Shown here one piece after another: positions 1 to 21,405 of a DNA stretch of 26,824 nt. How positions within the stretch are numbered: the first letter of the stretch is position 1; every line of letters begins with the position of its first letter. The DNA comes from an uncultured Bdellovibrio sp. (GTDB taxonomy: Bacteria > Bdellovibrionota > Bdellovibrionia > Bdellovibrionales > Bdellovibrionaceae), in NCBI GenBank assembly GCA_963932905.1, contig CAWVRN010000039.1, positions 1-26,824 on the forward strand. The letters are read 5' to 3'. Below the pieces are notes generated by a model. That model was not told the DNA's origin and did not search any database. It saw only the letters and a list, made by a program, of their open reading frames with translations. The position numbers were made by a program, and so were the translations under genes.

Positions 1-26
1 CTTGATTTGACGATATTTTACTTGGC

Positions 27-53
27 CTTAGCCGCAGGCTAAGGGGCCAGTTC
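27..53 (-). repeat. 27-bp hairpin-containing repeat, copy 1 (GAACTGGCCCCTTAGCCTGCGGCTAAG on minus strand)
   Basis: Reverse complement of 27-53 matches 26648-26674 at 25/27 positions. It contains the stem CCTTAGCC-GCA-GGCTAAGG (26-44). Confidence 0.8.
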
Positions 54-90
54 AAAAACAGAATAGCCGGGGCACAAGGCACCCCGACTA
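54..90 (-). terminator. Intrinsic terminator of the 109..522 gene
   Basis: Minus strand reads TAGTCGGGGTGC-CTT-GTGCCCCGGCTA (stem with G-U pairs) followed by TTCTGTTTTT, 18 nt after the stop codon. Confidence 0.7.
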
Positions 91-3461: not shown

Positions 3462-4604
3462 CTAGAGATCGAGTTTTCTAGATAACCACTGATCTAGGTC
3501 CTTAACTTGGTGAAAAAATAGGTCAGTTCCGGCCTGTATCAGTGGGTTTTTCGTTGCGTGCGGGTCCCATAACGCCGAGGCAGAAATGGCTCCAATGTTT
3601 TTAGCGCCATGCACATCGGAGGGACTATCACCGATGACGATGGCTTTGTTTTTTGCGACTTTTTTCCAGTCAAACTTCAGACTCTGGGCGTGGGGTTTTG
3701 AATCAACTTCGTTCGCAAAGCTTAGAGTGGTAAAGAAATGCTCGATGCTGTGTTCTTTTAAAATTTTTCGTGCCGAAAACTCATCACGTGCGGTCCATAA
3801 ATGTAGACGAGCATTTTTTTCATACAGGCGATGAAGCAGTTTCAAAATATCTTCGAATAATTCATACGAGAATTGCGAAGAAACTGTGCCCCAGGATTCT
3901 ATCGCTTTTTGTTTTCGCTTTGAACACACTACCCCAAAAGCTTCAAATAGTTTTGAAAACTCAGTGTGGAATTTGCTTTTTGATTCTTCATGTGAAATTT
4001 CGCGTTCCGTGGCGGCGCTAAAAACGATTCGGTTAATTTCGTATATATTTTCGCGGGACTGAATAATAGTTCCATCAAAATCAAAGATAATATCTGTTAA
4101 ATCTGCATTTTCGATTTCAATGACTCGATTCAGTGGTTGATGGTGAAATTTGACTTGCTTGGTTCCGATTTTTAAAATCAATTCAGGATTTAGAATTGGA
4201 TTGCCCGACACTTTAAAATCTAAATTAGGGTGTAGAGTCGAAAAACTTTCGAAACTTTCATTTAGAACAAATTCAGCGTGTTCGAAACCAGTGTCATAGT
4301 CAGTTCCTGGCTTTGGGTAAGGTAGCTCGACCAAATGTACCGTGTGGTTGTTTGTCGTGAACGGTTCGTTCATATCGAATGTGCAAATCGGGCGTCCATT
4401 TACTGGTGCTTCTGTTAGCAGGCGTCCGTTCGCAAGCAAAGCCGATTTATAAAATTCGTACTCACTGGGCGTGCAAACTCGAAAACAAAGATGATCACAG
4501 GGCATAGACAGCACGGGAAGCCCGTTCTTAACTAGGTCGGCAACTAATGCATTGAGAAAATTTTCGCCATCGATTTTGAATTGCATAAAATTGAAATTTA
4601 ACAT
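3462..4604 (-). CDS. Fusion of a YecM-like (VOC/glyoxalase fold) domain and a HAD-superfamily phosphatase
   Basis: N-half DHLCFRV, NGRPI, VELPYPK, GFEHAEFV, VKFHHQPL resemble YecM. C-half has HAD motifs DFDGT, WTAR, SKPH and GDSPSD. Confidence 0.85.
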   Translation of the reverse strand: MLNFNFMQFKIDGENFLNALVADLVKNGLPVLSMPCDHLCFRVCTPSEYEFYKSALLANGRLLTEAPVNGRPICTFDMNEPFTTNNHTVHLVELPYPKPGTDYDTGFEHAEFVLNESFESFSTLHPNLDFKVSGNPILNPELILKIGTKQVKFHHQPLNRVIEIENADLTDIIFDFDGTIIQSRENIYEINRIVFSAATEREISHEESKSKFHTEFSKLFEAFGVVCSKRKQKAIESWGTVSSQFSYELFEDILKLLHRLYEKNARLHLWTARDEFSARKILKEHSIEHFFTTLSFANEVDSKPHAQSLKFDWKKVAKNKAIVIGDSPSDVHGAKNIGAISASALWDPHATKNPLIQAGTDLFFHQVKDLDQWLSRKLDL

Positions 4605-6487: not shown

Positions 6488-7054
6488 TTAAGCATTTCCT
6501 GGTTTGTGACTTAGAATTATGAAATGACGGAATAGTCGCAGGGAAAATGGCATGTAGGCGGCCCATATAATGGCTACGATCGGATAGAAATCAGGTGCCA
6601 TAATATATACCTGAGTATCGAGTCCTCGATAGTAAGCCAAGGTACCGCCCGTAGCGCCCAGCATCGCCGATATCCAAATTGGAAAATCTAACATTTTTCT
6701 AAATACATCTCCGTAATAACCCAGGAACAATAACCATAAACACGAAATGTAAAGTGGCGGCCATTTGGTTCCAAAATCGATTTTTCCAAAATAAATCAAA
6801 ATAGAATCCTGAATAAAACCGGATACGTAGAAAAGCAGCATCACGGCTAGGTAATACTTAAACTGGATAAGTCTTCGTACGACAACGTAATTAATTAAAA
6901 GTATACCGACAGAAATCGCTGTCATAACAATTGGATCCATTGCAGGACCGTGTTTGACCATTAAGTTAAACAAAATTTGCATGACTATAATTTTACCTAC
7001 TAAAAACGGCCATGGTCGTTTTGGTAGCGATGACAGAGTTGCCTTTCTATCCAT
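6488..7054 (-). CDS. DUF2878-like multi-pass membrane protein
   Basis: About six hydrophobic helices with G..QDS.L...G...F, PPLYISCLWLLF and LGATGGTLAYY motifs. Start moved to ATG 7054 (MDRK) because the 7105 start overlaps the P450. Confidence 0.7.
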   Translation of the reverse strand: MDRKATLSSLPKRPWPFLVGKIIVMQILFNLMVKHGPAMDPIVMTAISVGILLINYVVVRRLIQFKYYLAVMLLFYVSGFIQDSILIYFGKIDFGTKWPPLYISCLWLLFLGYYGDVFRKMLDFPIWISAMLGATGGTLAYYRGLDTQVYIMAPDFYPIVAIIWAAYMPFSLRLFRHFIILSHKPGNA

Positions 7055-7073
7055 ATAAAAATATACTAAACCC

Positions 7074-8378
7074 ATGAATCCACAACAGGGAAGACCAATT
7101 CGCAAAGTGCCATTTTTGCAAATTCTATTGCACTTCTTTTCGATTAAGAGCCACTTACTGGTCCAGCTCGAGAAGTTTCACGGCCAATATGGTGATGTCT
7201 TTGCTATCCAAGCTGACAATTTGAAGTGTTTCATCAAACGTCCGGATATGATTAAGCGTGTGTTGATGGATAATCATATGAACTATGAAAAAAGTGTCGG
7301 TTTTAAAAACTTCCATGTTTTATTGGGAAAAGGTTTGCTGACCAGTGACGGCGCCAAGTGGATGGGTGATCGTAAAGTTTTAAATACAGAATTTAGCGGT
7401 ATTAGTCGGGCAGACAATATAAAAATCGCCAATGAAGAATACCAATCGATGCGATCAAAATGGGTCGTTGGACAAGAAATTAACTTTTCCAAGGCCGTCT
7501 ATGAACTGGTGGTTCATACGGTATGTCGCGAAATATTTCGCATTAAGTTTCCATCCTCTTTGGATGAATTCAAAGTGGCATTCATCGATTTTGATCGTTA
7601 TTTAAGTTACCAACAGCGATCGTTAATTAAATTTCCTTTTTGGTTTCCTCATCCCGTTCTGATTCGTGCTAATCGCGCTAAAAACAAATTAAGAAAAATT
7701 GCAGAAGACATTGTAAATGCCGCTTTGGATGAACCTACACCTAATATGATCAAAACAATGTTGCAAAATAATTTTCCTCGCGAAAATATTTTGGATCATA
7801 TCCTGACATTTTTCATTGCGGGACATGAAACGACAGTGAATTCGTTGCTGTTCACAATGTTGCTGCTGAGAGACAATCCGGTCGCTTGGACTAAATTAAA
7901 AAATGAGATTGATCAGGCACCTGCAAATCCGGATCCTGATACATTAGACAAGTTAGAATATTTAGACTGTGTTATTAAAGAAAGCTTGAGGTTGTTTCCA
8001 ACTATTCCGTTATTTCCACGGGTGGCCAAAGAAGACGATCAACTAGGCGAGTTTCAAATTCGTAAAGGTGATACCGTCGCGTTGTCGCCATGGTTAGTTC
8101 ATAGGTCAGAAAATTTATGGCCAGACGCTTTGAAATTTAAACCAGAACGATTTATTGGTAAACGCTATGAACAGGAATATATTTATTTTCCGTTCGCTTT
8201 AGGGCCGCGTAAATGCATTGGTGCCGCTTTATCTTCGTTAAATATGAAAATATTCATTTTCTTACTATTTAAAAATAATGATTTTAAAATCACGGGACCA
8301 AAAACAGAAGACTACATTCACAATGTTTCTTTGGCGCCGGCCAGCGATTTAAACCTTTTCTTGAATTCTAACCAATAG
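7074..8378 (+). CDS. Cytochrome P450
   Basis: GLLTSDG, I-helix AGHETT, ExxR (ESLR), PERF, heme-thiolate FALGPRKCIG. Confidence 0.97.
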   Translation: MNPQQGRPIRKVPFLQILLHFFSIKSHLLVQLEKFHGQYGDVFAIQADNLKCFIKRPDMIKRVLMDNHMNYEKSVGFKNFHVLLGKGLLTSDGAKWMGDRKVLNTEFSGISRADNIKIANEEYQSMRSKWVVGQEINFSKAVYELVVHTVCREIFRIKFPSSLDEFKVAFIDFDRYLSYQQRSLIKFPFWFPHPVLIRANRAKNKLRKIAEDIVNAALDEPTPNMIKTMLQNNFPRENILDHILTFFIAGHETTVNSLLFTMLLLRDNPVAWTKLKNEIDQAPANPDPDTLDKLEYLDCVIKESLRLFPTIPLFPRVAKEDDQLGEFQIRKGDTVALSPWLVHRSENLWPDALKFKPERFIGKRYEQEYIYFPFALGPRKCIGAALSSLNMKIFIFLLFKNNDFKITGPKTEDYIHNVSLAPASDLNLFLNSNQ

Positions 8379-8917
8379 TAAAACAACACTAAGAATTTAT
8401 TCAGGATGCTGATCTTAAATTTTGGATAGACAAACAGCTGCGACGGCAAACCAAAAATAGAAGGACCTATGTATAAATTAGTGGGACCAACTATACTGTA
8501 GTACTGGCTTAATTTTGTCGATTGATTGTGTCCAAGTAAATATTGGCTTTTTGAGCTTAAAAACAATTCGAAAATATGAATCCATACATTTTGAACCATT
8601 TCAAAACGAGTGATGCAGGGTTCTTTCCACATGCAGACGATTTCGCAGCATTGGTCCCATTTGAAGGAAGGGGATATTTTGATTTCTGCGTTTTTAGGTA
8701 CAAACTCAAGAAGGCGAAACGGTGAAGTGAATCCTAGAATGAAACCTGCGACCATGTGGTTGTTTTGGTTAAAGACCGCATAGACTTGGCAACGTTTCAT
8801 ATATTCTAGAGTCAATGGAACTGTATTTTCCGGTTTGGTGCTTTTTAAACTTTTACTGAAGTTCTGCTGGTAACGGATCAATTCTTCATCAGAGAATAAT
8901 TTTTTTAGTTTAAGCAT
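8318..8917 (-). CDS. Hypothetical protein, possibly a GNAT-fold (LuxI/FeeM/OlsB-like) acyltransferase
   Basis: Start overlaps the PlsC stop by 8 nt. Pattern VYAVF....MVAGFIL ... CEIVCMW recalls GNAT beta-strands 2-4. The fold call is inference only. Confidence 0.55.
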   Translation of the reverse strand: MLKLKKLFSDEELIRYQQNFSKSLKSTKPENTVPLTLEYMKRCQVYAVFNQNNHMVAGFILGFTSPFRLLEFVPKNAEIKISPSFKWDQCCEIVCMWKEPCITRFEMVQNVWIHIFELFLSSKSQYLLGHNQSTKLSQYYSIVGPTNLYIGPSIFGLPSQLFVYPKFKISILNKFLVLFYYWLEFKKRFKSLAGAKETL

Positions 8918-10085
8918 GGGACTTCCTTTGGCTTAATATAAATTCTAAAAGATTCACAAACTGAGCTCGGCTGTCTTGAGTGATTTCCAGCGCCCAGCGG
9001 TTGGTTTTTGTTTTTAAAATTATAACCTCGCCCCAGTCTTGTGTATGAGATTGAATATCAGAATAAGGAATGGATAAACTACCAATAGTTAAGGAGTCTG
9101 CACCAAGAATTAAAAGGTCTGGTATTTGGGCTATCCAAGACCCTTTTGAAATATCGTACGGTTGTATAGAATGCGTGGACCTGATTTCTTTTTGCCTAAG
9201 CCACTTACTGGTTGTGGTTTCGAAAGATTTTATAAATAGATCTTTTACTTTTTTGTCTTTCGAATGGATCACTGTATTGTCTGCGCCAATTTCCCAAACG
9301 TCGCGGCAGCGGTTGCAATTTAGTTTGTAACCATTTTCAACAAGGCTGTTGTCTTGACTACATGTCGGACAGTAGACCAATGTTTTGGCCAAGCCTTGGG
9401 CCGTGTGGGCGCAATAGCTTGCAAATTTTGTATTGGGTTTATCCAAGCTAAATAGTTTTTCAGTGATAATTGAAAGAATTGGATCTTCTTTTCTAAATGT
9501 TTGTGCCGGATGAATAGTAATTTTTATTTTTGTTTTACGCATCGCTGTCGCCCACAACGGTTTTACGCGATCGCCATTAGATAAGTGAACGATAACAACG
9601 GGCAGGTTAAGAAAACGGATCAATTGATCTATTCCCGGCATTAGTGGGGACGGTTCACCGTATAGGGAAAAAACGCCTTCAGGGAACAAGGCAATGTGGG
9701 CACCACAATCAGACCAGCGTTTTAATAGTTGAATCGATCCAGGGTCCAAATCCAATTTTCGTTTTGCCACATGACCAAATAACGAAATCACTTTTGAAAC
9801 TAATCGGGGTCGCATAAAGGATTCGGAAATTAAAAATTGCAAAGGGCGTTCACCAAAAAAATTAACTAACAATGGATCCAGTGCGCAGGAATGATTCATC
9901 AAAACTAAATAAGGCCCACCACGCAAATTTTCTTTGCCGACAACTTCAATTCCTAAAAACAATCGCGATAATAAAAAGCGAAACAGCGGACCTAACAGTA
10001 CGAATAACCAGCGATACAAAGCGTATTTGTACTTTGAAGGCTTGGTAGATGTTAAAATTTCGAACGAGCTGTTTAGATTTTCCAT
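8910..10085 (-). CDS. PlsC/LPLAT-family acyltransferase with a C-terminal zinc ribbon and extra domain
   Basis: Catalytic NHSCALD (HX4D), FPEG, LPVV. C-terminal CPTC...CNRC. Confidence 0.9.
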   Translation of the reverse strand: MENLNSSFEILTSTKPSKYKYALYRWLFVLLGPLFRFLLSRLFLGIEVVGKENLRGGPYLVLMNHSCALDPLLVNFFGERPLQFLISESFMRPRLVSKVISLFGHVAKRKLDLDPGSIQLLKRWSDCGAHIALFPEGVFSLYGEPSPLMPGIDQLIRFLNLPVVIVHLSNGDRVKPLWATAMRKTKIKITIHPAQTFRKEDPILSIITEKLFSLDKPNTKFASYCAHTAQGLAKTLVYCPTCSQDNSLVENGYKLNCNRCRDVWEIGADNTVIHSKDKKVKDLFIKSFETTTSKWLRQKEIRSTHSIQPYDISKGSWIAQIPDLLILGADSLTIGSLSIPYSDIQSHTQDWGEVIILKTKTNRWALEITQDSRAQFVNLLEFILSQRKSHA

Positions 10086-10097
10086 AGTTTGTATCTG

Positions 10098-11162
10098 CTA
10101 TTTAAAATGGGGAATTACATCTTCCCCAATTGTGCGGATAGATTCCATGATGAGTTCATGTGGAATGGTTCCTGATTGAATTACAAAAATCAATTCATCG
10201 ACACCAACGTCGACAAATCGACGGATAGTTTCGCGTGCAGACACAGGGTCGCCAAAAATAGCGGATAGCTGGGTTCCCGGGCGATTGCGATGCTTTTCAA
10301 AAAGATCGACTTCATTATCAGACGGAAGTTCACGTGGACTTCGAACAGGCCCTACATGGCGGTTTTGAGTCCAATAGTAATGGGCCATAGATCGCGTAAA
10401 GAATTTTGAACCGCGAATTCCGTAACGTAATGCTTTTTTATCGTCTTTCAAAACAAGAGTCGAAGGGTTGCAACAAAAGTGGTTGGTCACGACACCCGTG
10501 ATGGGGGTTGATTCGTTAATGGCGGCTCGATAGTTATCGACTTTTGCCTTTAGTTGTTCATCGTGATAGATGGCAAAGTTCAGTGCACCTAAACCTAATT
10601 TTCCAACGCTGATCGCATTTTCAGGACGACTGCACGATGCAAATGCCGGCGGTTGTTGGGTTGGCTTGGGGACGACATGTATGGGTGGAATGTCGTAGAA
10701 TTTTCCTTTCCATGAGAACGCTTCGTTACGCCACATTTTAGGAATCATTTCCAAAGCTTCAAGCCACTGATCATTTAATTCTTTGGGGTCGATTTCAAAA
10801 GCCCCTTGTTCCATTACAGTCCCGGATTTGGCGCTGCCCCAGTAGACTCGGCCATGGCTTAGTATATCCAAGGTAGCAATTCGTTCAGCAATACGAATCG
10901 GGTGATTGTAATTTTTCGGCAGCAACGTCGATCCGTGACAAATATTAATTCGTTTTGTTTTTGCCGCAACGAAAGAAAGAAAAATCTCAGGAGCCGAACT
11001 GTGGGCATATTCATACAGACCATGATGTTCAACGGCCCAAATTCCATCAAATCCAACGGCGTCAGCCAATACAGCTTGCTCTACGCAATCGTGAAACAAC
11101 TGTTGTTCACTTTGCGCGGTAGGATCAGAAATCTGCATTTCGTAGAAAAGTGAAAATCGCAT
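10098..11162 (-). CDS. LLM-class (luciferase-like) flavin-dependent monooxygenase
   Basis: LADAVGFDGIWAVEHH, SAPEIFL...AAKTKRI, HPIRIAERIATLDILSHGR, VVPKPTQQPP. Confidence 0.95.
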   Translation of the reverse strand: MRFSLFYEMQISDPTAQSEQQLFHDCVEQAVLADAVGFDGIWAVEHHGLYEYAHSSAPEIFLSFVAAKTKRINICHGSTLLPKNYNHPIRIAERIATLDILSHGRVYWGSAKSGTVMEQGAFEIDPKELNDQWLEALEMIPKMWRNEAFSWKGKFYDIPPIHVVPKPTQQPPAFASCSRPENAISVGKLGLGALNFAIYHDEQLKAKVDNYRAAINESTPITGVVTNHFCCNPSTLVLKDDKKALRYGIRGSKFFTRSMAHYYWTQNRHVGPVRSPRELPSDNEVDLFEKHRNRPGTQLSAIFGDPVSARETIRRFVDVGVDELIFVIQSGTIPHELIMESIRTIGEDVIPHFK

Positions 11163-12337
11163 TAACTTTTGCCTCCACTTTCACGTAGGTCAGCAGATAA
11201 ACGAATCGCGCTATCGGCAATCAGTAATTTTTGTACCGCTTCGGTACCTTCATAGATTTGCAAAAGTTTTGTATCGCGAACCAGTTTTTCGATGCGATTT
11301 TCTTCTATATAGCCAGCGCCACCGTGAAGTTCTAAACAGTCGTTAGTAATTTCACAAGCAATCTGCGCGGCAAGTAGTTTTAAACCGCTTGAATATTTTG
11401 TGCCGTGATTGCCATTTTCTAATTCCCAGGCCGCATTGTATAAATAGGCTCTAAGCATATCTATTTTCGCTTCCATCGTTGCAAATTTAAATTGAATGTC
11501 TTGTTCAAAAATAATCGGGCTGCCTGAACCCGTTTTTCTACTATGACAATGAATTTTGGCCAGATCACGTGCCCGGCGAGACACACCCAAGGCCATGGCA
11601 CCAACACCGATACGGCTTGAGCGAAGTGACATTAAAGCGATCTGTGGGCCCTGACCGATTTTACCGATTAAGTTTTCCGTAGGAACAAAGGTATCAAAGA
11701 ATTTCATTCCCGCCGTGTCGGCGGCTCGTTGTCCCATCTTTTTCAAAGGAGGTGTAAGCTCGATCCCTTTGGCAGTGCTAGGAACGATGAAACAGGAAAA
11801 GCCGCGTTCCTGATTTGCCTGCCGTGCGAACACGGCATAGAATTGCGCCACACTTGCGTTAGATATTGTTGATTTTTCGCCGCGAATTTTAAAACCGCCG
11901 TCGACGATTTCAAATTCAGTCGTCGCAGGTCTAGATCCCAGATTGGTGCTGCCCTCCGGTTCTGTGAATCCAAAGGAAGCGAAGCCGAGTTTTTGAGTCA
12001 GTGGGGTTAGCCATTGTTGCTTTTGATTTTCCGATCCAAACAACAGTAGCGGGCCTAGTGCCAAACGGCTAACAAAAGCGGATGTTGTAAAGCCTAAATC
12101 CCCATATGCACTTTCTTCAACGGCAAGCAATGTATCTATAAATGATTTTCCCTGGCCACCGTAGGCTTTGGGGATGGCCGTTGTCATAATTCCAGACTCG
12201 AACGCCTTCTGATACAGATCCATAGGGAAATGCCCATGCACATCCAAATCAGTTCTTGAAAGAACGTTAGCTTTTACAAAGTTTTTAACGTGATCTCTCC
12301 AAGCTAAACTTTCAGGCGCCAGTTTGAAATTGATCAT
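11162..12337 (-). CDS. Acyl-CoA/acyl-ACP dehydrogenase (ACAD family)
   Basis: IPKAYGGQG, FTEPEGS, KMGQRA.DT, LHGGAGY, RDTKLLQIYEGT with the MCAD-type catalytic Glu. Confidence 0.95.
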   Translation of the reverse strand: MINFKLAPESLAWRDHVKNFVKANVLSRTDLDVHGHFPMDLYQKAFESGIMTTAIPKAYGGQGKSFIDTLLAVEESAYGDLGFTTSAFVSRLALGPLLLFGSENQKQQWLTPLTQKLGFASFGFTEPEGSTNLGSRPATTEFEIVDGGFKIRGEKSTISNASVAQFYAVFARQANQERGFSCFIVPSTAKGIELTPPLKKMGQRAADTAGMKFFDTFVPTENLIGKIGQGPQIALMSLRSSRIGVGAMALGVSRRARDLAKIHCHSRKTGSGSPIIFEQDIQFKFATMEAKIDMLRAYLYNAAWELENGNHGTKYSSGLKLLAAQIACEITNDCLELHGGAGYIEENRIEKLVRDTKLLQIYEGTEAVQKLLIADSAIRLSADLRESGGKS

Positions 12338-12621
12338 TGGATTAAACCATGGACCTTGTCACACAAATCATTTACGTCATTGATTTCAAAAAATGAGATG
12401 CTCGATGTATCGATTTTTAATTCATTGTCGAATTGAACCATGATCCAAATCATAGTGATGGAATCAAGTCCAATCGCACTTAGAGGTGTATCGATCAAAA
12501 CCCGCTGATCTACAGAATTCGCAATGGTGCCCAGTTCATCGGAGCTTAAATTAGGATTGTTGTTTAGATGACTTTTTACAACGTTAGATTTGAAAAAATC
12601 AAATATTTGTTCTTTTGTCAT
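12334..12621 (-). CDS. Acyl carrier protein
   Basis: 95 aa, acidic, phosphopantetheine site GLDSI. Lies between FAAL and ACAD with overlapping start/stop codons. Confidence 0.88.
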   Translation of the reverse strand: MTKEQIFDFFKSNVVKSHLNNNPNLSSDELGTIANSVDQRVLIDTPLSAIGLDSITMIWIMVQFDNELKIDTSSISFFEINDVNDLCDKVHGLIQ

Positions 12622-14389
12622 TGGAAATCCTTCGTGTTAAAAATGTTAAAATATTCGTAAATGAATTCGTTGAGGCCGCTTTTGAAAGGCGTCCGTCTTT
12701 CCATAGTTGAATGTTCAAGCGCCGTTGAATTTTACCTGAACTTGTTTTTCTTAAAGTTCCTGGCGGCAGGACTTCAACTTTATACAAAGGCAAACCGGCT
12801 TTCTGAATAACTTTGGCAATTTCAGATTCAAGATTTAGTTTCTTCTGTGCATCTATGGCTTTACTAGTAGATTCTGCCAAAACGACAATTTGATCCGAAT
12901 CAAATTCTGGTAATTTGATTGATGATACCAAAGCTTTTCCTTTGCGGATATCAGCTATTGATGATAGTTTTTCTTCATACAATACCGGGTAATGATTTTT
13001 ACCATTGACGATAATGATGTCTTTCAATCGGCCACATATATAGAGTTCATCGTGAAATAGAAATCCTTCATCACCAGTTTTTAGCCAGCCATCGCTGCTT
13101 AGAAGTTCACTATTTAGTTTCTTGTTTCTAAAGTAGCCGCTTGTTACACAAGGGCCCTTAATGTGTATTTGGCCGACTTGACCTTGAGAAAGAGATTTAC
13201 CGGCAGAGTTTACTATTTTTAATTCGAACGTCGGTAAAATGCGTCCCACGCTACAGATTTCAATTCCATTTTCATCTAATGATACAATGCCGTTTTCTAA
13301 TAAATCAGAATTTAACTTTAGGATTTGTAACTCTTTTTTCGGACCGGTAAAGCTAACGGCTAGCGAAGCTTCCGCTAGTCCATAAACAGGAAGGAAACTC
13401 TCGGCAGGATACTGGGCAGGTTTCATATGTTCGATAAAATTTTTGGCTGTTTCAGCACTTACATTTTCGGCACCACACAATGTGCCCTTTAGACATGATA
13501 AATCTAAATTTTGAATTTGGCTTTGAGGAACGCGTTTACGAACTAATCCATAGGCAAAGTTAGGAGCCGTAGTAATTGTCGCGCGGAAGTCATGCATAGC
13601 CTTGAGCCAAAGAAAGGGGTTAACCAAAAAATCGTGAGGATTAAACAGCAGCAGCGGCGTTCCATTGACGATCGAAAGCAGCAAACAACCAACAAGACCC
13701 ATATCATGGTATAAAGGTAACCAACACACGATCGCGACATTTTCTTTTTCTAAAGGCAGAGAACTTGCGATAACGTTCGTATTTGTAATTACATTTTTGT
13801 GAGTGATCATTACGGCTTTGGGACGGCCGGTGGTTCCGGAACTTAATTGAAGAAAACTAATTTCATTTTCAGAATACGAATTGGCATCAAATGGTAGGTT
13901 TAGTATAGCCGCTAATTCCGACCCAGATTTATTTTTTGAAAAATTGGAAGCATACTTGGACAAATTAATAATATGAATTTCTGAATCCGTATTTAGCTTA
14001 TTTAAAATTTTTGCGCAACGATCATCAGTGATGATCGTTGCGCAGTTTAATTCAGATAAGGTATTGGCTATGCTATTGAACCAGTCGTTTATATCCGTCA
14101 GCGCTGTTGGAGATGCAAATGAAAAGGGAATGGCGTGTATATACTGGCAGCCGAAAAAACTCATAAGGAATTCTTCTTGCGTGGGCAGGATGATAGCGAC
14201 CACTTCGCCGTTTTTAACGTCGGCTTCTTTCAATAGATCACTTACGTGTACAATATCAAGCCACAGGTTTTGGTAGGAATAATGACGGTAAGACCCCTGT
14301 CTATCCAAGAATTGAATGTTCGACAAAGCGCTTTTTGCGCGCTCGTTGAGTATAGGGATCAGGTGATAGCCTTGTTTTGAGCTTTCCAT
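12599..14389 (-). CDS. Fatty acyl-AMP ligase (FAAL)
   Basis: QLSSGTTGRPK, WLPLYHDMGL, APNFAY, YGLAEASL followed by a FAAL-type insertion, TGD, GRLKDIIIVNGKNHYP, KTSSGKIQR. Confidence 0.93.
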   Translation of the reverse strand: MESSKQGYHLIPILNERAKSALSNIQFLDRQGSYRHYSYQNLWLDIVHVSDLLKEADVKNGEVVAIILPTQEEFLMSFFGCQYIHAIPFSFASPTALTDINDWFNSIANTLSELNCATIITDDRCAKILNKLNTDSEIHIINLSKYASNFSKNKSGSELAAILNLPFDANSYSENEISFLQLSSGTTGRPKAVMITHKNVITNTNVIASSLPLEKENVAIVCWLPLYHDMGLVGCLLLSIVNGTPLLLFNPHDFLVNPFLWLKAMHDFRATITTAPNFAYGLVRKRVPQSQIQNLDLSCLKGTLCGAENVSAETAKNFIEHMKPAQYPAESFLPVYGLAEASLAVSFTGPKKELQILKLNSDLLENGIVSLDENGIEICSVGRILPTFELKIVNSAGKSLSQGQVGQIHIKGPCVTSGYFRNKKLNSELLSSDGWLKTGDEGFLFHDELYICGRLKDIIIVNGKNHYPVLYEEKLSSIADIRKGKALVSSIKLPEFDSDQIVVLAESTSKAIDAQKKLNLESEIAKVIQKAGLPLYKVEVLPPGTLRKTSSGKIQRRLNIQLWKDGRLSKAASTNSFTNILTFLTRRISNDKRTNI

Positions 14390-14507: not shown

Positions 14508-15824
14508 TTAGGAGTGAGTCAGGCAGTCGACTGCCGATTTTTTAATGGTTCCTTTAGCGCTAAAATAGGACGCAATAAGGCCCAACACGATTAACATCAA
14601 AGCTAGGAAGAGTAAACTGGTGACGTTAGGATTTATTTGCAGAACGACTTTTTCTGAAATCATACCGGCCTTGTAGTAGAACTGAATTGAATTTACGACA
14701 CCTAAAAACAGGTAACCCATCACAAGACCAGTTAAGACGCCGAAAGCGCATAGAATTGCACTTTCGAATAGAAAAATAGTTAAAATTTTTTCGGGAACAA
14801 AACCAAGACTCTTTAGTAAACCAATTTCCTTAGTCCGTTCCTTTACATTTTTAGAAAATGTCATACTGATAGAAAATCCGGAAACACATACCAACACGAA
14901 AATTAAAAAATTTCTAAAAATTTTCAATAGGTTGATAGTGCGATTGTAAGAGTCTCCGACAGGATGTTTTTGCCAACGCAAGATTTGAATATTGGGATCG
15001 TTGAGGTTGGTATTGAACTCGTCGATAAATTTATCAATAGCAGCGGAATCGAACAAAAGAACGGTGTAATAGCCAATTCGATCCGTATTTACCAAAATTT
15101 GCGCATCTTTTAAATCGGCAAGCACATAACGAGCATCAATATTACGAATGCCGGCGTCAGTGAGTCCCGAAACGATCATCGATAACGAATTAACTTGGCC
15201 AGATGCGGTTGTTGTAGTCAGTTGAAAATCGTTTGTGTCGCAGTTAAATTCTCGGTTGCCTTCTTTGAAACCGCCAGCAACATTGACAGCGTTTTGTTTC
15301 ACCTTGGCTTTGCAGCCCAATGTTCGCGCTAAGGACTGGCCCAGCAGAATTTTTTGTCCGGGTTCGCCGACGTGCAGTGGTTCGCCATATAGAGCATTCC
15401 AAGCCCAATCCGTGCCTCTTAATTTCAATCCGCCAGGCTGATCAAAGGCCCTTGCCGTGAAGATAGTTGAAATGCGTCCGTTGCTGATCGTTCCAGAGAA
15501 ATCCAAATTTTTAACGTACGCTAGAACATCCGTGGGGCGAGAGGATAGGTAGGTTTCAATTTTATATTGTTGCTCTTGAGTAAGTGAGTACGCAATTGGT
15601 TCTGCTTTACCTTCTTTCTGTTTAAGCTTTGGATTTTGAATAATCAGATCACCATACATCAAACGGTAGCGATGAACATTGGCATAAAGACCGGTTACAT
15701 TTTTAATGTATCCGTCGAAAATCAAAATCGAGAAAAAAGCCATCGCCACAGATAACAAAGCGGCCATCGAGGGCCGCAAGTTAGCATGCACATTTCTGTA
15801 AGCGATCAGGAACAGATACTTCAT
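14508..15824 (-). CDS. ABC transporter permease, LolC/E-FtsX-MacB type
   Basis: N-terminal IAYRNV + TM, large periplasmic domain, ERTKEIGLLKSLGF...IFLFES motif, three C-terminal TMs. Confidence 0.9.
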   Translation of the reverse strand: MKYLFLIAYRNVHANLRPSMAALLSVAMAFFSILIFDGYIKNVTGLYANVHRYRLMYGDLIIQNPKLKQKEGKAEPIAYSLTQEQQYKIETYLSSRPTDVLAYVKNLDFSGTISNGRISTIFTARAFDQPGGLKLRGTDWAWNALYGEPLHVGEPGQKILLGQSLARTLGCKAKVKQNAVNVAGGFKEGNREFNCDTNDFQLTTTTASGQVNSLSMIVSGLTDAGIRNIDARYVLADLKDAQILVNTDRIGYYTVLLFDSAAIDKFIDEFNTNLNDPNIQILRWQKHPVGDSYNRTINLLKIFRNFLIFVLVCVSGFSISMTFSKNVKERTKEIGLLKSLGFVPEKILTIFLFESAILCAFGVLTGLVMGYLFLGVVNSIQFYYKAGMISEKVVLQINPNVTSLLFLALMLIVLGLIASYFSAKGTIKKSAVDCLTHS

Positions 15825-15830
15825 ATTTTA

Positions 15831-17078
15831 TTATTGAGCACTATTAGCATCCAAAACTTGGATGCGTACACGGTACTCTGGATCTGAACACTCAATAGCA
15901 TGGCTACCTAAAAAGTATCCTTTACCAATATTGCATCCTCTGACAGAAGGAGGATCTAGTGGAGAAAGCAAGATACGTAAAGAGGATCTAGGGATGTCTG
16001 AATAGTATTTCGCAATTATTTTTTGCGTTTCGAAATTAATTGCTTTTAACCAGGCCGCCTTAGTTAAGGCGATTTTTGCGGAATCGCCTTTTTTTAAACC
16101 TTCTACTGAACCTTGCGTAAATCCATAGTCTAATGCCAACTCACCAGTATCGTCTTTGAAATCAAGCGTGTATGTTTTGTTGGGTTTCAATTCTAGACCG
16201 AAAGAAAACGAGCTTACGCTTGAAAAAATATATTTTTGTGTGCTGTCGGTTGTTTTTTTCGAAACGGGAGGCATATCACCCGTGGTAGTAGTTATGTTAA
16301 TTGTTCTTTGAATTTTACTGATGGAATAATTAATAGCTTCTTTGGGCTGAAAAAAGTTACGCGAACCAGAGTGTCTTACGGATTCGAAGTGATATTCTGT
16401 GGTACTCAAGATTTTTTCTTTTGGAACAACAACGATCGGTTTTGGCTCTAATGAAGACATGTAGGACATAATAACGTCGGTTGCTTCTGCAAATAATTCT
16501 AAAGCAACCTCTTTTAGTTTTAATTGAACACGTTTTAATGTTTCTTGGTCTTGTAGGTTGTTAGCGCGGCATTCTTGTTTTGAGCGTTGGACAACCCAAT
16601 TCAAACTGCCGGAAGTGATTTCGCTTTCTTCAGCCTTCAGTTGATGAGTGTATTCGGTTACCTTTTGAATTAAGCATTCTTCTGTTGGCTGTGCGACCTG
16701 CGGCTTTGCGTCCTGCTTAGCTGGTGCTGAGGAAGCCTCCGGAGCCGGCGCGCCAGAGCTTGGAGCTGGCGGAACAGTTACTTTGGCAGGTTGACCTTTG
16801 TTAGCGTCGTCGCCATTGGATGTCAGGGCTGACGTGTCAGCGTCTGGAGTTGAGACTTCATTATCATTTTTTTTAGTCGGGTTTGAGTCGGCAGGATTAT
16901 CGTTTCTTGGAGCAGCGGGAGGGGGCACCTTTTGGTCTTTGTTTTTGCCGTCAGAAGTATCCGCAGCCCCTTCGGCCTTCGGTTTTGTTTTTTCGTAAGT
17001 AAGTGGGTCTGGCTTTTTCGCACACGCGGCAAACATGATCGAACTTAAGAGTACTAATGATAGTTTTGAAATATGCAT
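15831..17078 (-). CDS. Lipoprotein with a long P/A/D/K-rich disordered linker and an unknown C-terminal domain
   Basis: Lipobox FAAC after a hydrophobic signal. About 110-aa low-complexity tether. Only 6 bp from the permease. Confidence 0.8.
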   Translation of the reverse strand: MHISKLSLVLLSSIMFAACAKKPDPLTYEKTKPKAEGAADTSDGKNKDQKVPPPAAPRNDNPADSNPTKKNDNEVSTPDADTSALTSNGDDANKGQPAKVTVPPAPSSGAPAPEASSAPAKQDAKPQVAQPTEECLIQKVTEYTHQLKAEESEITSGSLNWVVQRSKQECRANNLQDQETLKRVQLKLKEVALELFAEATDVIMSYMSSLEPKPIVVVPKEKILSTTEYHFESVRHSGSRNFFQPKEAINYSISKIQRTINITTTTGDMPPVSKKTTDSTQKYIFSSVSSFSFGLELKPNKTYTLDFKDDTGELALDYGFTQGSVEGLKKGDSAKIALTKAAWLKAINFETQKIIAKYYSDIPRSSLRILLSPLDPPSVRGCNIGKGYFLGSHAIECSDPEYRVRIQVLDANSAQ

Positions 17079-18263: not shown

Positions 18264-19733
18264 CTATCGAGTGGCGAGCCAAGTTTCAATTTCGACCAAT
18301 GTCATTTGACTGATTTGTGCGTGCGGTGGGCTGCCTGGCCAGAATGTTTTATCGACGTGATGATCTAAATGATAAATCAGTTTTTGAATGAACGAGATGA
18401 CGTCGTTGGATGCTTTCTTTTTAATGGCTTCATTCATCGTTTCTTTTATTTTGTCTTCGACCACTATGTTTAGAGCGCGGTAGCCGCGTCCCAACCAAAG
18501 TTTCGCATCGTTTTCTTTTTCCATCAGTAGGAAAGCGGAAAAAAGGACACCGTAAGGATACCAGTAATGACATTCTCCCGCTCGTTCTGCGGCCAAAGCC
18601 ATCAAGCAAATATCGCGAAGTAGTGCGGGCTGAATTTGGCCTGCTGGTATGGATTCGACGGATTTAATTAGGTATTCGGTGGCGTGACTTAGATAGCTAA
18701 TGTCGTCTGAAAACAATTTCCAATTTCTTAAATAATGACTTTTGATTTCTTCACGTAGTGCTTGGGCCTGTTCGGGCAAACAAGAGTTATCGAATAGCAC
18801 GGCTCGTTTTTCTTTTACTTGAGCGATATAAACGTAAATCAAAGAAAACGCACCCGGTTGTTTCAACGCCCTGCTGAACAAAGACTCAGCGACTAACAAA
18901 AAATCGTCCCGTTTAAATCTGGCTCCTTCTGTTGAAAAGGTATGGCCTGCAGTAATCAGATCAAATTTTTCTTCGCTTGTCGCACATAGGGTAGCGGCTT
19001 CAAGCATTCTTAAAATCTCGAGTTCAATTTCAGGTGATGTCGGTAGTTCACGGTCGGTCAGCCAACGATGAAATTCAGTTCCCATTTTCAAAGCAAAAAT
19101 AGGATCTTCGATTGCTTTTTCATAACACTCGGCGAAGAATGCACGACGTTGGTTTTGAAATCGTTCCACCAAATGTGCTGGAATATTATCTTGGTACAAA
19201 AGGTATAAATTAGATAAATAGAATCCATCAGCGGTCGCATTAAACCTTTCGGCGACTAAATCTAATGCTTTTACCAAAAATATTTCAGATTCTAGTGGGT
19301 CGTTTGTTGGGAAATATTGGTAGGTGTAGATTAAATTAGAATACGCGACACCGTTGTCAGGATTTTCATGAATGAATGGTTTTAATATTGTTTCACTTTG
19401 TTTGTAATACTCTTGAGCCTGGGCTAAATCATTCTCTCTTTTTCTGAAATCACCACATATTAAAATATATTCCACGCGGTCGATAGTTTTATCAGAATCA
19501 CTTAGAATTTGCAGCGCATCGATTCCCTCGGCATAGGGATAGTCTGTTGGATCGCCGCCCTTACCGCAATGAAAGTCATACATCCACACTTGCAAAATGC
19601 CTTCAATGGCGTCGAGCAAGTGTGTGCGATCGTCTTCATTGCGAGTCGCAACGACTTGTGGGACCAGTTCGCACAGTCCTGGAACATTGTTTTCCTGTTT
19701 ATACTTTTCAATTTCTGCGGTTATTGAGCTCAT
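18264..19733 (-). CDS. Hypothetical alpha-helical (TPR-like) cytoplasmic protein
   Basis: 489-aa ORF with no signal peptide and helical-repeat-like segments (AQAQEYYKQS...NPDNGVAYSNL). No recognisable catalytic motif. Confidence 0.75.
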   Translation of the reverse strand: MSSITAEIEKYKQENNVPGLCELVPQVVATRNEDDRTHLLDAIEGILQVWMYDFHCGKGGDPTDYPYAEGIDALQILSDSDKTIDRVEYILICGDFRKRENDLAQAQEYYKQSETILKPFIHENPDNGVAYSNLIYTYQYFPTNDPLESEIFLVKALDLVAERFNATADGFYLSNLYLLYQDNIPAHLVERFQNQRRAFFAECYEKAIEDPIFALKMGTEFHRWLTDRELPTSPEIELEILRMLEAATLCATSEEKFDLITAGHTFSTEGARFKRDDFLLVAESLFSRALKQPGAFSLIYVYIAQVKEKRAVLFDNSCLPEQAQALREEIKSHYLRNWKLFSDDISYLSHATEYLIKSVESIPAGQIQPALLRDICLMALAAERAGECHYWYPYGVLFSAFLLMEKENDAKLWLGRGYRALNIVVEDKIKETMNEAIKKKASNDVISFIQKLIYHLDHHVDKTFWPGSPPHAQISQMTLVEIETWLATR

Positions 19734-19962: not shown

Positions 19963-21405
19963 ATGAAAACATCACTTTTTATGTTTTTCGCTTTGATTGT
20001 TTTTTCGGTGGTTGGATCTGCTCAAACTAGTTCCCAGATTCTTTCAAAGAACGCTCAAATTCAGAGCCTCATGTTAACAAATGAAAACTGCGCCGCGGAA
20101 TTATTAACAGTAAAATCATTTTTCCAAGATTTTAAACCTGTTTCTTTAAATGCCAATGAAACTCCCGGCCTTCTAAGATCGATGTTTACAGCTCGTGTTT
20201 CTTTGCACGATCAGTTATCGCATTTGTCTGAAAAATGTGCGGCGACAATGCGTGGAGTTTTCCGGGTGATGCGTGAGGCTGAAGACAGCATCGGTGTTCA
20301 TGGTTATCGGGACACGCAATTGAATGCGGCAGATTTAAAATTCAATCATCAACCTGTCCCTTTGATAGAATATAAAAAATATCGTCCTTACCAATTAAAT
20401 GTACGTACTTTCCAGTTTCAAAAAGGCGATATCATGATCACCAAAGGTGTCAGTATGATTTCATCAACGATTTCTGGTTTGCCAAAAGAGCCGTCGTTGT
20501 TTAGCCACATTGCATTTGTATACCAAAATGATGAAACCGGTGCGTTTGGTACGATTGAATCTTATATTGGCGTCGGGGTTAGATTATACACCATGAACGA
20601 AGCGCTGCTAAATGAAAATGCACGCATTTTGGTTTTACGTCCGAAAGATCAAGCACTCGCTCTGGCTAGCCATGATTATATGTATAACCGAGTGAAGACT
20701 TCGATCGAAAAAAATCAGTACATTCATTACGATTACAAACAAAATTTTTCAGACAATGTGACACTAAGCTGCGAAGAAATTGCGTACGATGCCTTCTTGC
20801 AAGGAAGTCGCGGTCAGATGAAAATTCCCTATAGCCAATCGGTCGTTGATCTGAAAGACGAAAAATTTTTGAACAGTGCCGGTCTTGTTAGGGGCGAAAA
20901 CATGTTACCTGCCGACATGGAAGTTGATCCCAGATTTGAAATCGTATTGGATTGGACGGACTACCGCATCATGCGCGATAGCGCTCGAAAAGACGCTATT
21001 ATGCGCGAATCCTTGCGTTGGATTAACGAAAAGAATTACGTAATGTACAACACATTTCAAGCTGTGCTGGGAAAGATTCTTTGGGGGACTCGCGAAATTG
21101 ATTTCTTGTGGCCGATGTCTTCGAAATTAATGGGCGTTCCTATAGATTATGAAAAAGATGTTCCAGGGTCAGGTGTTGCGATGATGGCTAACCTTAGAGT
21201 CTTGGGCGCCTATCTGCTGCCGGCTCTGGCTAAACAAGATCAAAATTTCTTCTCAGAAAATAATCGCTGGATGAGCATGATGGAATTACGATCGGCAGTA
21301 GATAATTTAAGAGCCGACGACGAGGACCATTACATCCAAAATCGCAGTAGTAAGTTTCATTATTTTTTTAGAAATCCAAAAACTGTGCAGAAGCCAAATA
21401 ACTAA
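19963..21405 (+). CDS. Secreted permuted papain-like NlpC/P60 (YiiX/YebB-like) hydrolase
   Basis: Signal peptide, then QKGDIMI, FSHIAFV (His), IES, YDY..F and LSCEEI (Cys after His, the permuted order). Confidence 0.82.
   Translation: MKTSLFMFFALIVFSVVGSAQTSSQILSKNAQIQSLMLTNENCAAELLTVKSFFQDFKPVSLNANETPGLLRSMFTARVSLHDQLSHLSEKCAATMRGVFRVMREAEDSIGVHGYRDTQLNAADLKFNHQPVPLIEYKKYRPYQLNVRTFQFQKGDIMITKGVSMISSTISGLPKEPSLFSHIAFVYQNDETGAFGTIESYIGVGVRLYTMNEALLNENARILVLRPKDQALALASHDYMYNRVKTSIEKNQYIHYDYKQNFSDNVTLSCEEIAYDAFLQGSRGQMKIPYSQSVVDLKDEKFLNSAGLVRGENMLPADMEVDPRFEIVLDWTDYRIMRDSARKDAIMRESLRWINEKNYVMYNTFQAVLGKILWGTREIDFLWPMSSKLMGVPIDYEKDVPGSGVAMMANLRVLGAYLLPALAKQDQNFFSENNRWMSMMELRSAVDNLRADDEDHYIQNRSSKFHYFFRNPKTVQKPNN

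Follow-up and report, generated by a model that had tools for sequence, protein, structure and literature searches.

A fatty acyl-AMP ligase-fed cassette with two acyltransferases in an uncultured Bdellovibrio: a candidate route to an oxidized, phosphorus-free aminolipid

What product could be made by a bacterial gene cluster that combines a fatty acyl-AMP ligase (FAAL), an acyl carrier protein (ACP), an acyl-CoA-dehydrogenase-fold enzyme (ACAD), a luciferase-like monooxygenase (LLM) and two predicted acyltransferases, in the absence of any ketosynthase (KS) or condensation domain? This question is raised by a 26,824-nt stretch of DNA from an uncultured Bdellovibrio sp. (assembly GCA_963932905.1, contig CAWVRN010000039.1; hereafter the window), which constitutes an entire contig of a 4.55-Mb genome (G000) that is 98.6% complete. 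A model-made reading of the bare sequence (the original prediction) had proposed that six minus-strand genes, accompanied by a P450 and a DUF2878-like gene, encode an oxidized-lipid pathway unlike any characterized one. Our analysis indicates that this cassette is real, conserved and apparently undescribed, and leads us to propose a FAAL-fed, two-acyltransferase route to a phosphorus-free acyloxyacyl amide (an aminolipid) carrying an oxidized (2,3-oxidized) chain, a reading of the product that we hold to be evenly poised between right and wrong.

An open reading frame (ORF) check placed all six genes on the minus strand in the order FAAL-ACP-ACAD-LLM-acyltransferase-ORF199 (Table 1), with junctions of -23 (FAAL/ACP), -4, -1, +12 and -8 nt that reproduce the predicted overlaps and gap exactly to the base. 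Pfam matches over cut-off (AMP-binding, PP-binding, acyl-CoA dehydrogenase, Bac_luciferase, Acyltransferase PF01553, p450 and DUF2878) bear out the family calls for FAAL, ACP, ACAD, LLM, acyltransferase, P450 and DUF2878, and a Pfam scan of 31 window ORFs detected neither KS nor condensation domains, as had been claimed. The conservation of the cassette exceeds chance, because the same succession of genes is met with at 12 further loci, which range from 31 to 69% GC, and because synonymous changes are many and amino acid changes few in comparison with G006, a relative of the same genus (for the LLM, 149 of 354 codons differ synonymously only, against 12 amino acid changes). The window has no Rfam match, a promoter scan found 22 sites versus 26.5 expected, and no insertion-boundary repeat was seen among the repeats listed; a look for RNA runs listed none.

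A search with the LLM as query yielded 80 genome loci and 80 metagenome loci, to which a phylum search added more. LLMs of the same clade (13 rows, support 100/99) occur at 12 loci besides the window, namely L011 (G006), L012, L013, L015, L018, L093, L014 (G094), L023 (G242), L102, L201 (G308), L212 (G079) and L101; two more loci were left out as nonindependent, L091 for its identity with the window and L092 for its near-identity with L011. At these 12 loci, mostly from Bdellovibrionota, the operon recurs whole or in part, so that conserved synteny, whose absence the original prediction had named as contrary, does exist. ACAD is present at 12/12 loci, FAAL and ACP each at 11/12, the acyltransferase at 10 of 11 informative loci, and an orthologue of ORF199 at eight of the nine with DNA available past the acyltransferase; L101 is a 2.8-kb contig that starts inside ACAD. 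The cassette is nevertheless rare: among 401 phylum genomes, five have it (G000 is one of them, and three had been in the query alignment), and it was found in one of nine other genomes of the same genus, although the flanking genes are common to them. This patchiness, together with the range in GC content, suggests horizontal spread; among the best 15 of 28 plasmid matches, there were only LLM homologues at 38-40%. L014 stems from a record titled Lysobacteraceae (G094:C1), and the genome search places the same sequence in the phylum of the window, so the label may be wrong.

Two subtypes follow the LLM tree. Subtype A comprises the window and six other loci and has the FAAL upstream; a P450 orthologue is present at four of the six, the remaining two being cut short. 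Subtype B comprises six loci with another FAAL, only 25-27% identical and located downstream, and has no P450 orthologue (0/6); a desaturase and an MFS pump, found at 4/6, stand in place of the P450 and DUF2878 genes. The cassette of G308 neighbors LolA-like, FtsX-type and Sfp-type phosphopantetheinyl transferase (PPTase) genes, and L013 is adjoined by RND and outer-membrane efflux genes.

The first two genes appear to form a loading module. All 18 PDB matches of the ligase at E≤1e-30 are FAALs or FAAL-type adenylation proteins, headed by the fatty acyl-adenylate ligase 3PBK (E 7e-74); its adenylation motifs are intact in 9/9 aligned sequences, and the adjoining ACP gene overlaps its own, all of which places it among the FAALs. 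Its best NCBIfam model is likewise fatty acyl-AMP ligase, with a score below the cut-off of that model, and the MbtM and MbtN models match window proteins far below cut-off. A ligase that makes acyl-CoA, which the original prediction had named as a finding that would speak against it, is thus not what these matches suggest. In the ACP, Ser54 lies in an Asp-Ser motif whose two residues, D53 and S54, are invariant in 12/12 sequences; G000 contains one weak PPTase match. The FAAL gene also harbors a 33-nt perfect palindrome with 16-nt arms (window 14012-14044), one of 12 such in the genome; one arm has different codons in the G006 orthologue, a pattern expected of template-switch mutation.

The ACAD is probably an acyl-ACP alpha,beta-dehydrogenase, as judged from its residue pattern. 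Glu363 at the catalytic position is kept in 53 of 55 subfamily members, and position 239 is Arg or Lys in 40/55 and Asp or Asn in 0/55, versus Asp or Asn in 64 of the 65 next homologues and Asp or Glu in the five solved enzymes shown. We take the acidic residue that CoA-using enzymes have at this position to bind the CoA adenine. The ACAD of the window, lacking the acidic residue of its CoA-using relatives, would accordingly not be expected to act on CoA esters only, the second finding that had been named as contrary. The subfamily consists of 55 proteins scoring at least 466 bits, with the next at most 379, a gap that is partly built in since the profile was made from these loci; by name, its members come from Bdellovibrionales, Legionellales, Myxococcaceae and alphaproteobacterial metagenome-assembled genomes (MAGs). 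FAAL identity, the invariant ACP serine, the Sfp-type PPTase gene beside the G308 cassette and the ACAD signature together support the carrier-bound loading and desaturation that the original prediction had envisaged.

Its oxygenation step and the absence of NRPS (nonribosomal peptide synthetase) and PKS (polyketide synthase) genes are likewise supported. The LLM has the luciferase-type Glu-His-His motif in 13/13 sequences, and PuwE and luciferase alpha chains are among the solved proteins that match it best. At 13/13 loci, the ACAD and LLM genes overlap by 1 or 4 nt (stop/start); this junction and that between the acyltransferase and ORF199, whose genes overlap at all nine loci with both, are the only ones never gapped. 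We rejected an F420-dependent oxidoreductase, as neither cofD nor cofG scored over cut-off in any of six hosts (0/6 each); a CofE-like gene alone occurs in 4/6, these being the four subtype-B hosts G079, G094, G242 and G308, and is absent from G000 and G006. Against the MupA-family model TIGR04020, the LLM scores 101 bits versus a cut-off of 244, which places it outside that family. We saw no flavin reductase gene in the cassettes, and PF01613 flavin reductase was not found in G000, where four PF03358 matches lie elsewhere in the genome; passages on MupA, itself an LLM, describe an enzyme that acts only on ACP-bound chains and recruits its reductase from elsewhere (PMC10952193). Sister LLMs, 54-64% identical, adjoin NRPS genes or PKSs ending in ACP-PlsC, neighborhoods that fit LLM action on carrier-bound chains and do not name the reaction. 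At three such loci (L020, L021 and L024, from Verrucomicrobia and Acidobacteria MAGs), highly reducing PKSs end in an ACP and a PlsC domain, and their products are apparently off-loaded straight onto a lipid.

The features that distinguish the fifth gene product concern its likely acceptor. Its predicted structure (pLDDT 87.8) has T. maritima PlsC (TmPlsC, 5KYM) as closest solved fold (Z 17.1, root-mean-square deviation [rmsd] 2.7, 189 aligned), while the C-terminal tail matches PH domains with Z up to 11.6. H65 and D70 of the HX4D motif, an FPEG motif and four cysteines are invariant in 14/14 sequences. K105 and R159 of TmPlsC bind the phosphate of lysophosphatidic acid (LPA), according to passages in PMC6688108, and the corresponding positions are Ser/Thr and Phe in 14/14 sequences, so that the protein lacks both LPA-phosphate ligands of a canonical PlsC. 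As controls, two canonical PlsC-like proteins of G000 keep both equivalents, distant homologues with the same zinc-ribbon tail architecture keep the Arg (5/5), and the OlsA-like protein of G000, encoded beside an OlsB-like gene, lacks both. The enzyme thus probably does not acylate a lysophospholipid, and its signature fits a nonphosphorylated acceptor. The hand-over to acyltransferases foreseen in the original prediction is supported by these data; a PlsC-type transfer to a lysophospholipid is improbable given the loss of the phosphate ligands. With H65 and D70 in place, the cassette does contain a PlsC-like O-acyltransferase with HX4D beside a putative N-acyltransferase, the arrangement seen in OlsBA and OlsF.

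That neighbor, ORF199, has no Pfam, NCBIfam or PDB sequence match, even when searched as a 139-sequence profile. An Atlas search returned unnamed clusters, one with 15% GNAT members, and the profile search retrieved 456 representatives at E≤0.001, 20 of them at E≤1e-30. The model built from 139 sequences (pLDDT 94.8) has FeeM (2G0B) as top match both in Foldseek (E 3e-7) and in VIA-align (Z 16.2, rmsd 3.1, 169 aligned; next 14.5), with LasI at Z 13.9 and SbzI at Z 13.8; MbtK-type and OlsB-type folds are absent among the best 50 VIA-align matches listed, which excludes nothing. Within the family, G58 is invariant, position 92 is Glu or Asp in 139/139, R68 is kept in 129/139 and W97 in 134/139. 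The CoA P-loop motif is found in 0/21 of the closest relatives and in 3/139 members, and according to PMC11685415, carrier-dependent GNATs, FeeM and SbzI among them, typically have an altered P-loop. The predicted fold, in the FeeM/AHL-synthase branch and without the CoA P-loop, thus suggests a FeeM-type enzyme. A LuxI-type acyl-homoserine lactone (AHL) synthase was considered and rejected despite the related fold, as the autoinducer synthase family matches 0/139 members at E≤0.1 and no LuxR occurs among the 31 window ORFs; at the same threshold, no member matches the MbtK-type Pfam family. In a quick tree, the cassette GNATs need two changes, and so need not form a single clade. The original prediction had counted a 199-aa ORF as sixth gene of the operon, which holds; we would now describe it as a FeeM-like GNAT, and therefore an amide product is indicated, with the reservation that G079 lacks the gene.

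More distant relatives of ORF199 lie beside a tandem-GNAT-like gene at 16/26 loci, beside LolA-like genes at four and beside desaturases at three, and some are fused to a desaturase or a PEMT-like lipid methyltransferase. Such relatives (L175-L200, L203-L207) occur in 22 of 100 genomes of one Bdellovibrionota family, mostly paired with a GNAT-like gene of ~390 aa, and these pairs may constitute a second, undescribed acyl-transfer system.

How might these enzymes act together? In the pathway that we infer, the FAAL would adenylate a free fatty acid and load it onto the dedicated ACP, following FAAL chemistry, and the ACAD, whose catalytic residue is in place, would form a trans-2-enoyl-ACP if its presumed ACP specificity holds. 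The LLM, with FMNH2 and O2, may then oxidize the ACP-bound chain, most likely to a 2,3-epoxide or a 2- or 3-hydroxy derivative, to judge by analogy only; desaturation followed by epoxidation of acyl-ACP is described for HxcO/HcmO of the calcium-dependent antibiotic (CDA) in PMC9136287. N-acylation would fall to the putative GNAT ORF199, and the OlsA-like acyltransferase, with its dyad intact, would esterify a hydroxyl of the amide with a second acyl chain. An N-acyltransferase paired with a PlsC-like O-acyltransferase is the standard aminolipid plan according to section 4 of PMC11631085. Because G079 keeps the O-acylation step but not the N-acylation step, the oxidized chain would more likely leave the ACP through the O-acyltransferase and become the ester-linked chain, while the GNAT or, in G079, an OlsB-type enzyme of the host would supply the amide acceptor. 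The P450 of subtype A or the membrane desaturase of subtype B may be a swappable tailoring gene that adds one more oxidation, and Lol/FtsX-type or MFS transporters may export the product. Neither the condensation domain PF00668 nor IucA/IucC PF04183 was found in any of six host genomes (0/6; 93-99% complete), and therefore the cassette has to complete its own product or draw on a host lipid.

Several observations weigh against this proposal. MupA is described in passages of PMC10952193 as needing a beta-keto substrate, which a cassette without KS cannot make. ORF199 is only 11% identical to FeeM, and 221 chains reach Z≥8, so that the fold does not fix the reaction; the aminolipid N-acyltransferase family PF13444 matches 0/139 ORF199 members at E≤0.1, although this model does detect three other genes of G000, and the FeeM family PF21926 does not match ORF199 itself and matches 1/139 members at E 0.007. 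G079 (97% complete) carries a full FAAL-ACP-ACAD-LLM-acyltransferase-desaturase-MFS cassette, yet its whole genome has no homologue of ORF199. Rescue by a host OlsB is possible there and not supported: PF13444 occurs in all five other hosts tested, but also in 109/151 phylum genomes, so that its presence is weak evidence. As to the acyltransferase, two further LPLATs of G000 also lack the Arg, the acyltransferases beside the nearest sister LLMs (the PKS-ACP-PlsC loci) keep it (3/3), an invariant Lys-Arg-Lys (108-110) could replace the lost phosphate ligands, and L101 has no acyltransferase in the 515 nt available after the LLM.

Some of these points speak for other products. The product might, although we find this rather doubtful, be a small molecule for export, an N-acyl amide or ester (a signal, surfactant or antibacterial) like those of fee, tyz and stieleriacine: the GNAT would acylate an amino acid at its nitrogen, chain or amino-acid head would be oxidized by the LLM and P450, and the acyltransferase would cap or mask the result. 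FeeM as top fold for ORF199, the MFS pumps of subtype B and the efflux genes beside L013, a rare and patchy distribution typical of secondary metabolism, hosts that already own OlsB/OlsA/OlsF-like genes, and precedents in passages of PMC10404671 and PMC7293339 all agree with it. Set against this are the dispensability of the GNAT in G079 while a membrane-type acyltransferase is kept at 10/11 informative loci, the lack of a LuxR-type regulator in the window, and the LolA-like and FtsX genes at other loci, which point to the envelope. Alternatively, the core from FAAL to acyltransferase might place the oxidized chain on a glycerolipid or another hydroxyl acceptor (lipid A, lysophospholipid), leaving the GNAT as a side branch. 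G079 would then need no GNAT, and the PlsC fold, the invariant basic patch and the PKS-ACP-PlsC neighbors of the sister LLMs would find a ready place; we nonetheless consider this unlikely in view of the loss of both LPA-phosphate ligands where related enzymes keep the Arg, and of a GNAT that is kept and gene-overlapped at 9/10 loci including the window.

The two other explanations fare far worse. In a catabolic or salvage operon, the ligase would make acyl-CoA, and ACAD, LLM and P450 would degrade an unusual fatty acid; the best solved relatives of the ACAD are indeed ordinary acyl-CoA dehydrogenases, and ETF (electron-transfer flavoprotein) genes are present in 5/5 hosts. We rejected this very improbable reading since the ligase is a FAAL and not a fatty acyl-CoA ligase, a dedicated ACP accompanies it at 11/12 other loci, no cassette contains a hydratase, hydroxyacyl dehydrogenase or thiolase, two acyltransferases are present, and the ACAD signature is unlike that of CoA enzymes. 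FAAL, ACP, ACAD and GNAT are also the gene content of mycobactin mbtK/L/M/N, so the cassette might be an acyl-donor module for an NRPS or siderophore core whose genes lie at another place in the genome. This last idea is hardly credible: the far-below-cut-off MbtM and MbtN scores speak against it, and the absence of condensation domains and IucA/IucC synthetases from the six hosts largely refutes an NRPS partner in trans. The two-acyltransferase route to an acyloxyacyl amide is thus the reading that we retain.

Table 1. Coordinates of the cassette genes and their immediate neighbors in the window
Feature	Length (aa)	Standing	Position	Strand	Basis
Fatty acyl-AMP ligase (FAAL)	596	core	12599..14389	-	PDB matches and adenylation motifs
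Dedicated acyl carrier protein (ACP)	95	core	12334..12621	-	PF00550, E 6.5e-7
Acyl-CoA-dehydrogenase-fold enzyme (ACAD)	391	core	11162..12337	-	subfamily alignment, catalytic Glu
Luciferase-like (class C flavin) monooxygenase (LLM)	354	core, best-conserved gene	10098..11162	-	PF00296, E 6e-42
LPLAT/PlsC-fold O-acyltransferase with 4-Cys zinc-ribbon-like segment and C-terminal PH-like domain	391	core	8910..10085	-	predicted structure
ORF199, GNAT-fold FeeM-like putative carrier-dependent N-acyltransferase	199	near-core	8318..8917	-	predicted structure
Cytochrome P450	434	accessory (subtype A)	7074..8378	+	PF00067, E 9e-66
DUF2878 membrane protein	~188	accessory	6488..7054	-	PF11086, E 1e-14
FtsX/LolE-type ABC permease		upstream	14508..15824	-	PF02687

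Both further genes of the original prediction, the P450 and the DUF2878 gene, are present, but the P450 lies on the plus strand and both are accessory (Table 1). The P450, with I-helix, ExxR and heme-Cys motifs intact, is antisense to the operon between ORF199 and DUF2878 and overlaps the 3' end of ORF199 by 61 nt. DUF2878 most likely starts at ATG 7054 rather than TTG 7105, since in the G006 orthologue this ATG is directly preceded by an in-frame stop; 19 nt then separate the starts of DUF2878 and the P450. The head-to-head pair recurs in G006 and L093 and was not seen at other loci. DUF2878 may sit on an operon transcript running through the P450 (a noncontiguous operon), in which case the operon and P450 transcripts would be antisense over 1.3 kb.

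Upstream, the FtsX/LolE-type permease is a possible export aid that is not specific to the cassette: it also precedes the FAAL in G006, and genomes of the genus that lack the cassette have homologues as well. A 58% paralogue belongs to an operon of G000 (L242, C13:29174-36156) that encodes an ABC ATPase, FtsX, a LolA-like protein, this second FtsX, an unknown ORF, and OlsB-like and OlsA-like proteins, likely an aminolipid synthesis and export unit; G000 also has an OlsF-like fusion at C4:61295-63310. Elsewhere in this genome, C17:8143-13882 (L243) contains P450, SDR, AIRS-domain, diacylglycerol-kinase-like and thymidylate-kinase-like genes with an ORF that by eye resembles serine palmitoyltransferase/AONS, possibly a sphingolipid-type cluster. 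Four long ORFs of the window (15831-17078, 18264-19733, 19963-21405 and 850-1812) have no Pfam or NCBIfam match, the first being a probable lipoprotein gene 6 nt upstream of the permease, and 3462-4604 encodes a fusion of a YecM (VOC-family) domain with a HAD hydrolase domain. A sequence of ~55 nt at the contig start (window 1-60) is repeated at at least 30 places in the genome, many at contig ends, and represents an interspersed repeat or mobile-element end.

What would the cassette add to current knowledge? Further aminolipid routes are still being found, as PMC12493201 shows, and section 4 of the 2024 review PMC11631085 names two open points: a possible supply of chains to aminolipid synthesis by FAALs, and a possible O-acylation of FeeM-type N-acyl amino acids to give a mature lipid. 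Candidate genes for both are present in the cassette, whose 8 kb can be expressed whole in E. coli. In open PMC and bioRxiv text, subscription papers being outside the scope, we found no FAAL+ACAD+luciferase-like monooxygenase+ACP/acyltransferase/GNAT combination and nothing on Bdellovibrionota FAAL gene clusters, Bacteriovorax/Bdellovibrio aminolipids or NRPS-independent FAAL lipoamides, other searches giving analogues only; together with the family searches, this agrees with the earlier view that the combination matches no described pathway. The cassette also gives a first clue to the function of three groups of proteins, namely an unnamed GNAT family, a distinct ACAD subfamily and an LLM clade. 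Epoxy or hydroxy acyl chains made by ACAD and LLM with neither KS nor NRPS would, if the route is real, be of chemical use, and the specialized lipids of these uncultured hosts are almost unexplored. It is tempting to speculate, in a vision that we ourselves judge doubtful, that this is the first FAAL-fed aminolipid pathway, in which a free fatty acid, possibly prey-derived, would pass to a private carrier, be converted by ACAD and LLM into a 2,3-epoxy or hydroxy chain, perhaps with direct transfer of reduced flavin between the two, and end in an outer-membrane acyloxyacyl amide through an unnamed GNAT family and a PH-domain OlsA analogue.

Among known systems, fee (FeeM/FeeL) shares with the cassette a FeeM-like GNAT without CoA P-loop, an own ACP, downstream oxidative enzymes and the lack of an NRPS. 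The same likenesses emerge from passages on tyz (PMC10404671) and stieleriacine (PMC7293339). Unlike these systems, the cassette has a GNAT only distantly similar to FeeM, with no family-level hidden Markov model match, and contains ACAD, LLM and a PlsC-type enzyme instead of a nitroreductase-type oxidase or ThiF. As for the oxidative step, HcmO belongs to a flavoprotein class different from that of the LLM. MupA/OocM resemble the cassette, by analogy, in a class C flavin monooxygenase that acts on ACP-bound chains with an external reductase, but passages in PMC10952193 have MupA working on a beta-keto thioester inside a PKS, and PMC9136287 has HxcO/HcmO feeding an NRPS.

The closest parallels lie in two other kinds of systems. 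In OlsB/OlsA, OlsF, GluB and GlsBA aminolipid synthesis, as covered in section 4 of PMC11631085, a GNAT-fold N-acyltransferase stands beside a PlsC-like O-acyltransferase, just as in the cassette. The cassette O-acyltransferase, moreover, shares the loss of the LPA-phosphate ligands with the OlsA-like protein of G000; unlike the OlsB systems, its GNAT is not of PF13444, its chain would come from FAAL and a dedicated ACP instead of type II fatty acid synthesis, and ACAD, LLM, a P450 or desaturase, and zinc-ribbon and PH-like domains in the acyltransferase are added. In mbt-2 (MbtK/L/M/N) and friulimicin LipA/B/D, FAAL, ACP and ACAD load and desaturate a chain, which the mbt-2 GNAT transfers to an amine. 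The cassette unites the same FAAL, ACP and ACAD with a GNAT, in contrast without an NRPS or NRPS-independent siderophore (NIS) synthetase in six hosts and with the extra LLM, LPLAT and P450 or desaturase. Falling outside PlsC, LuxI and MupA as well, and belonging to neither OlsBA nor mbt-2 because it has no PF13444 protein and no NRPS or NIS partner, the cassette would work like OlsBA joined to an mbt-2 loading module.

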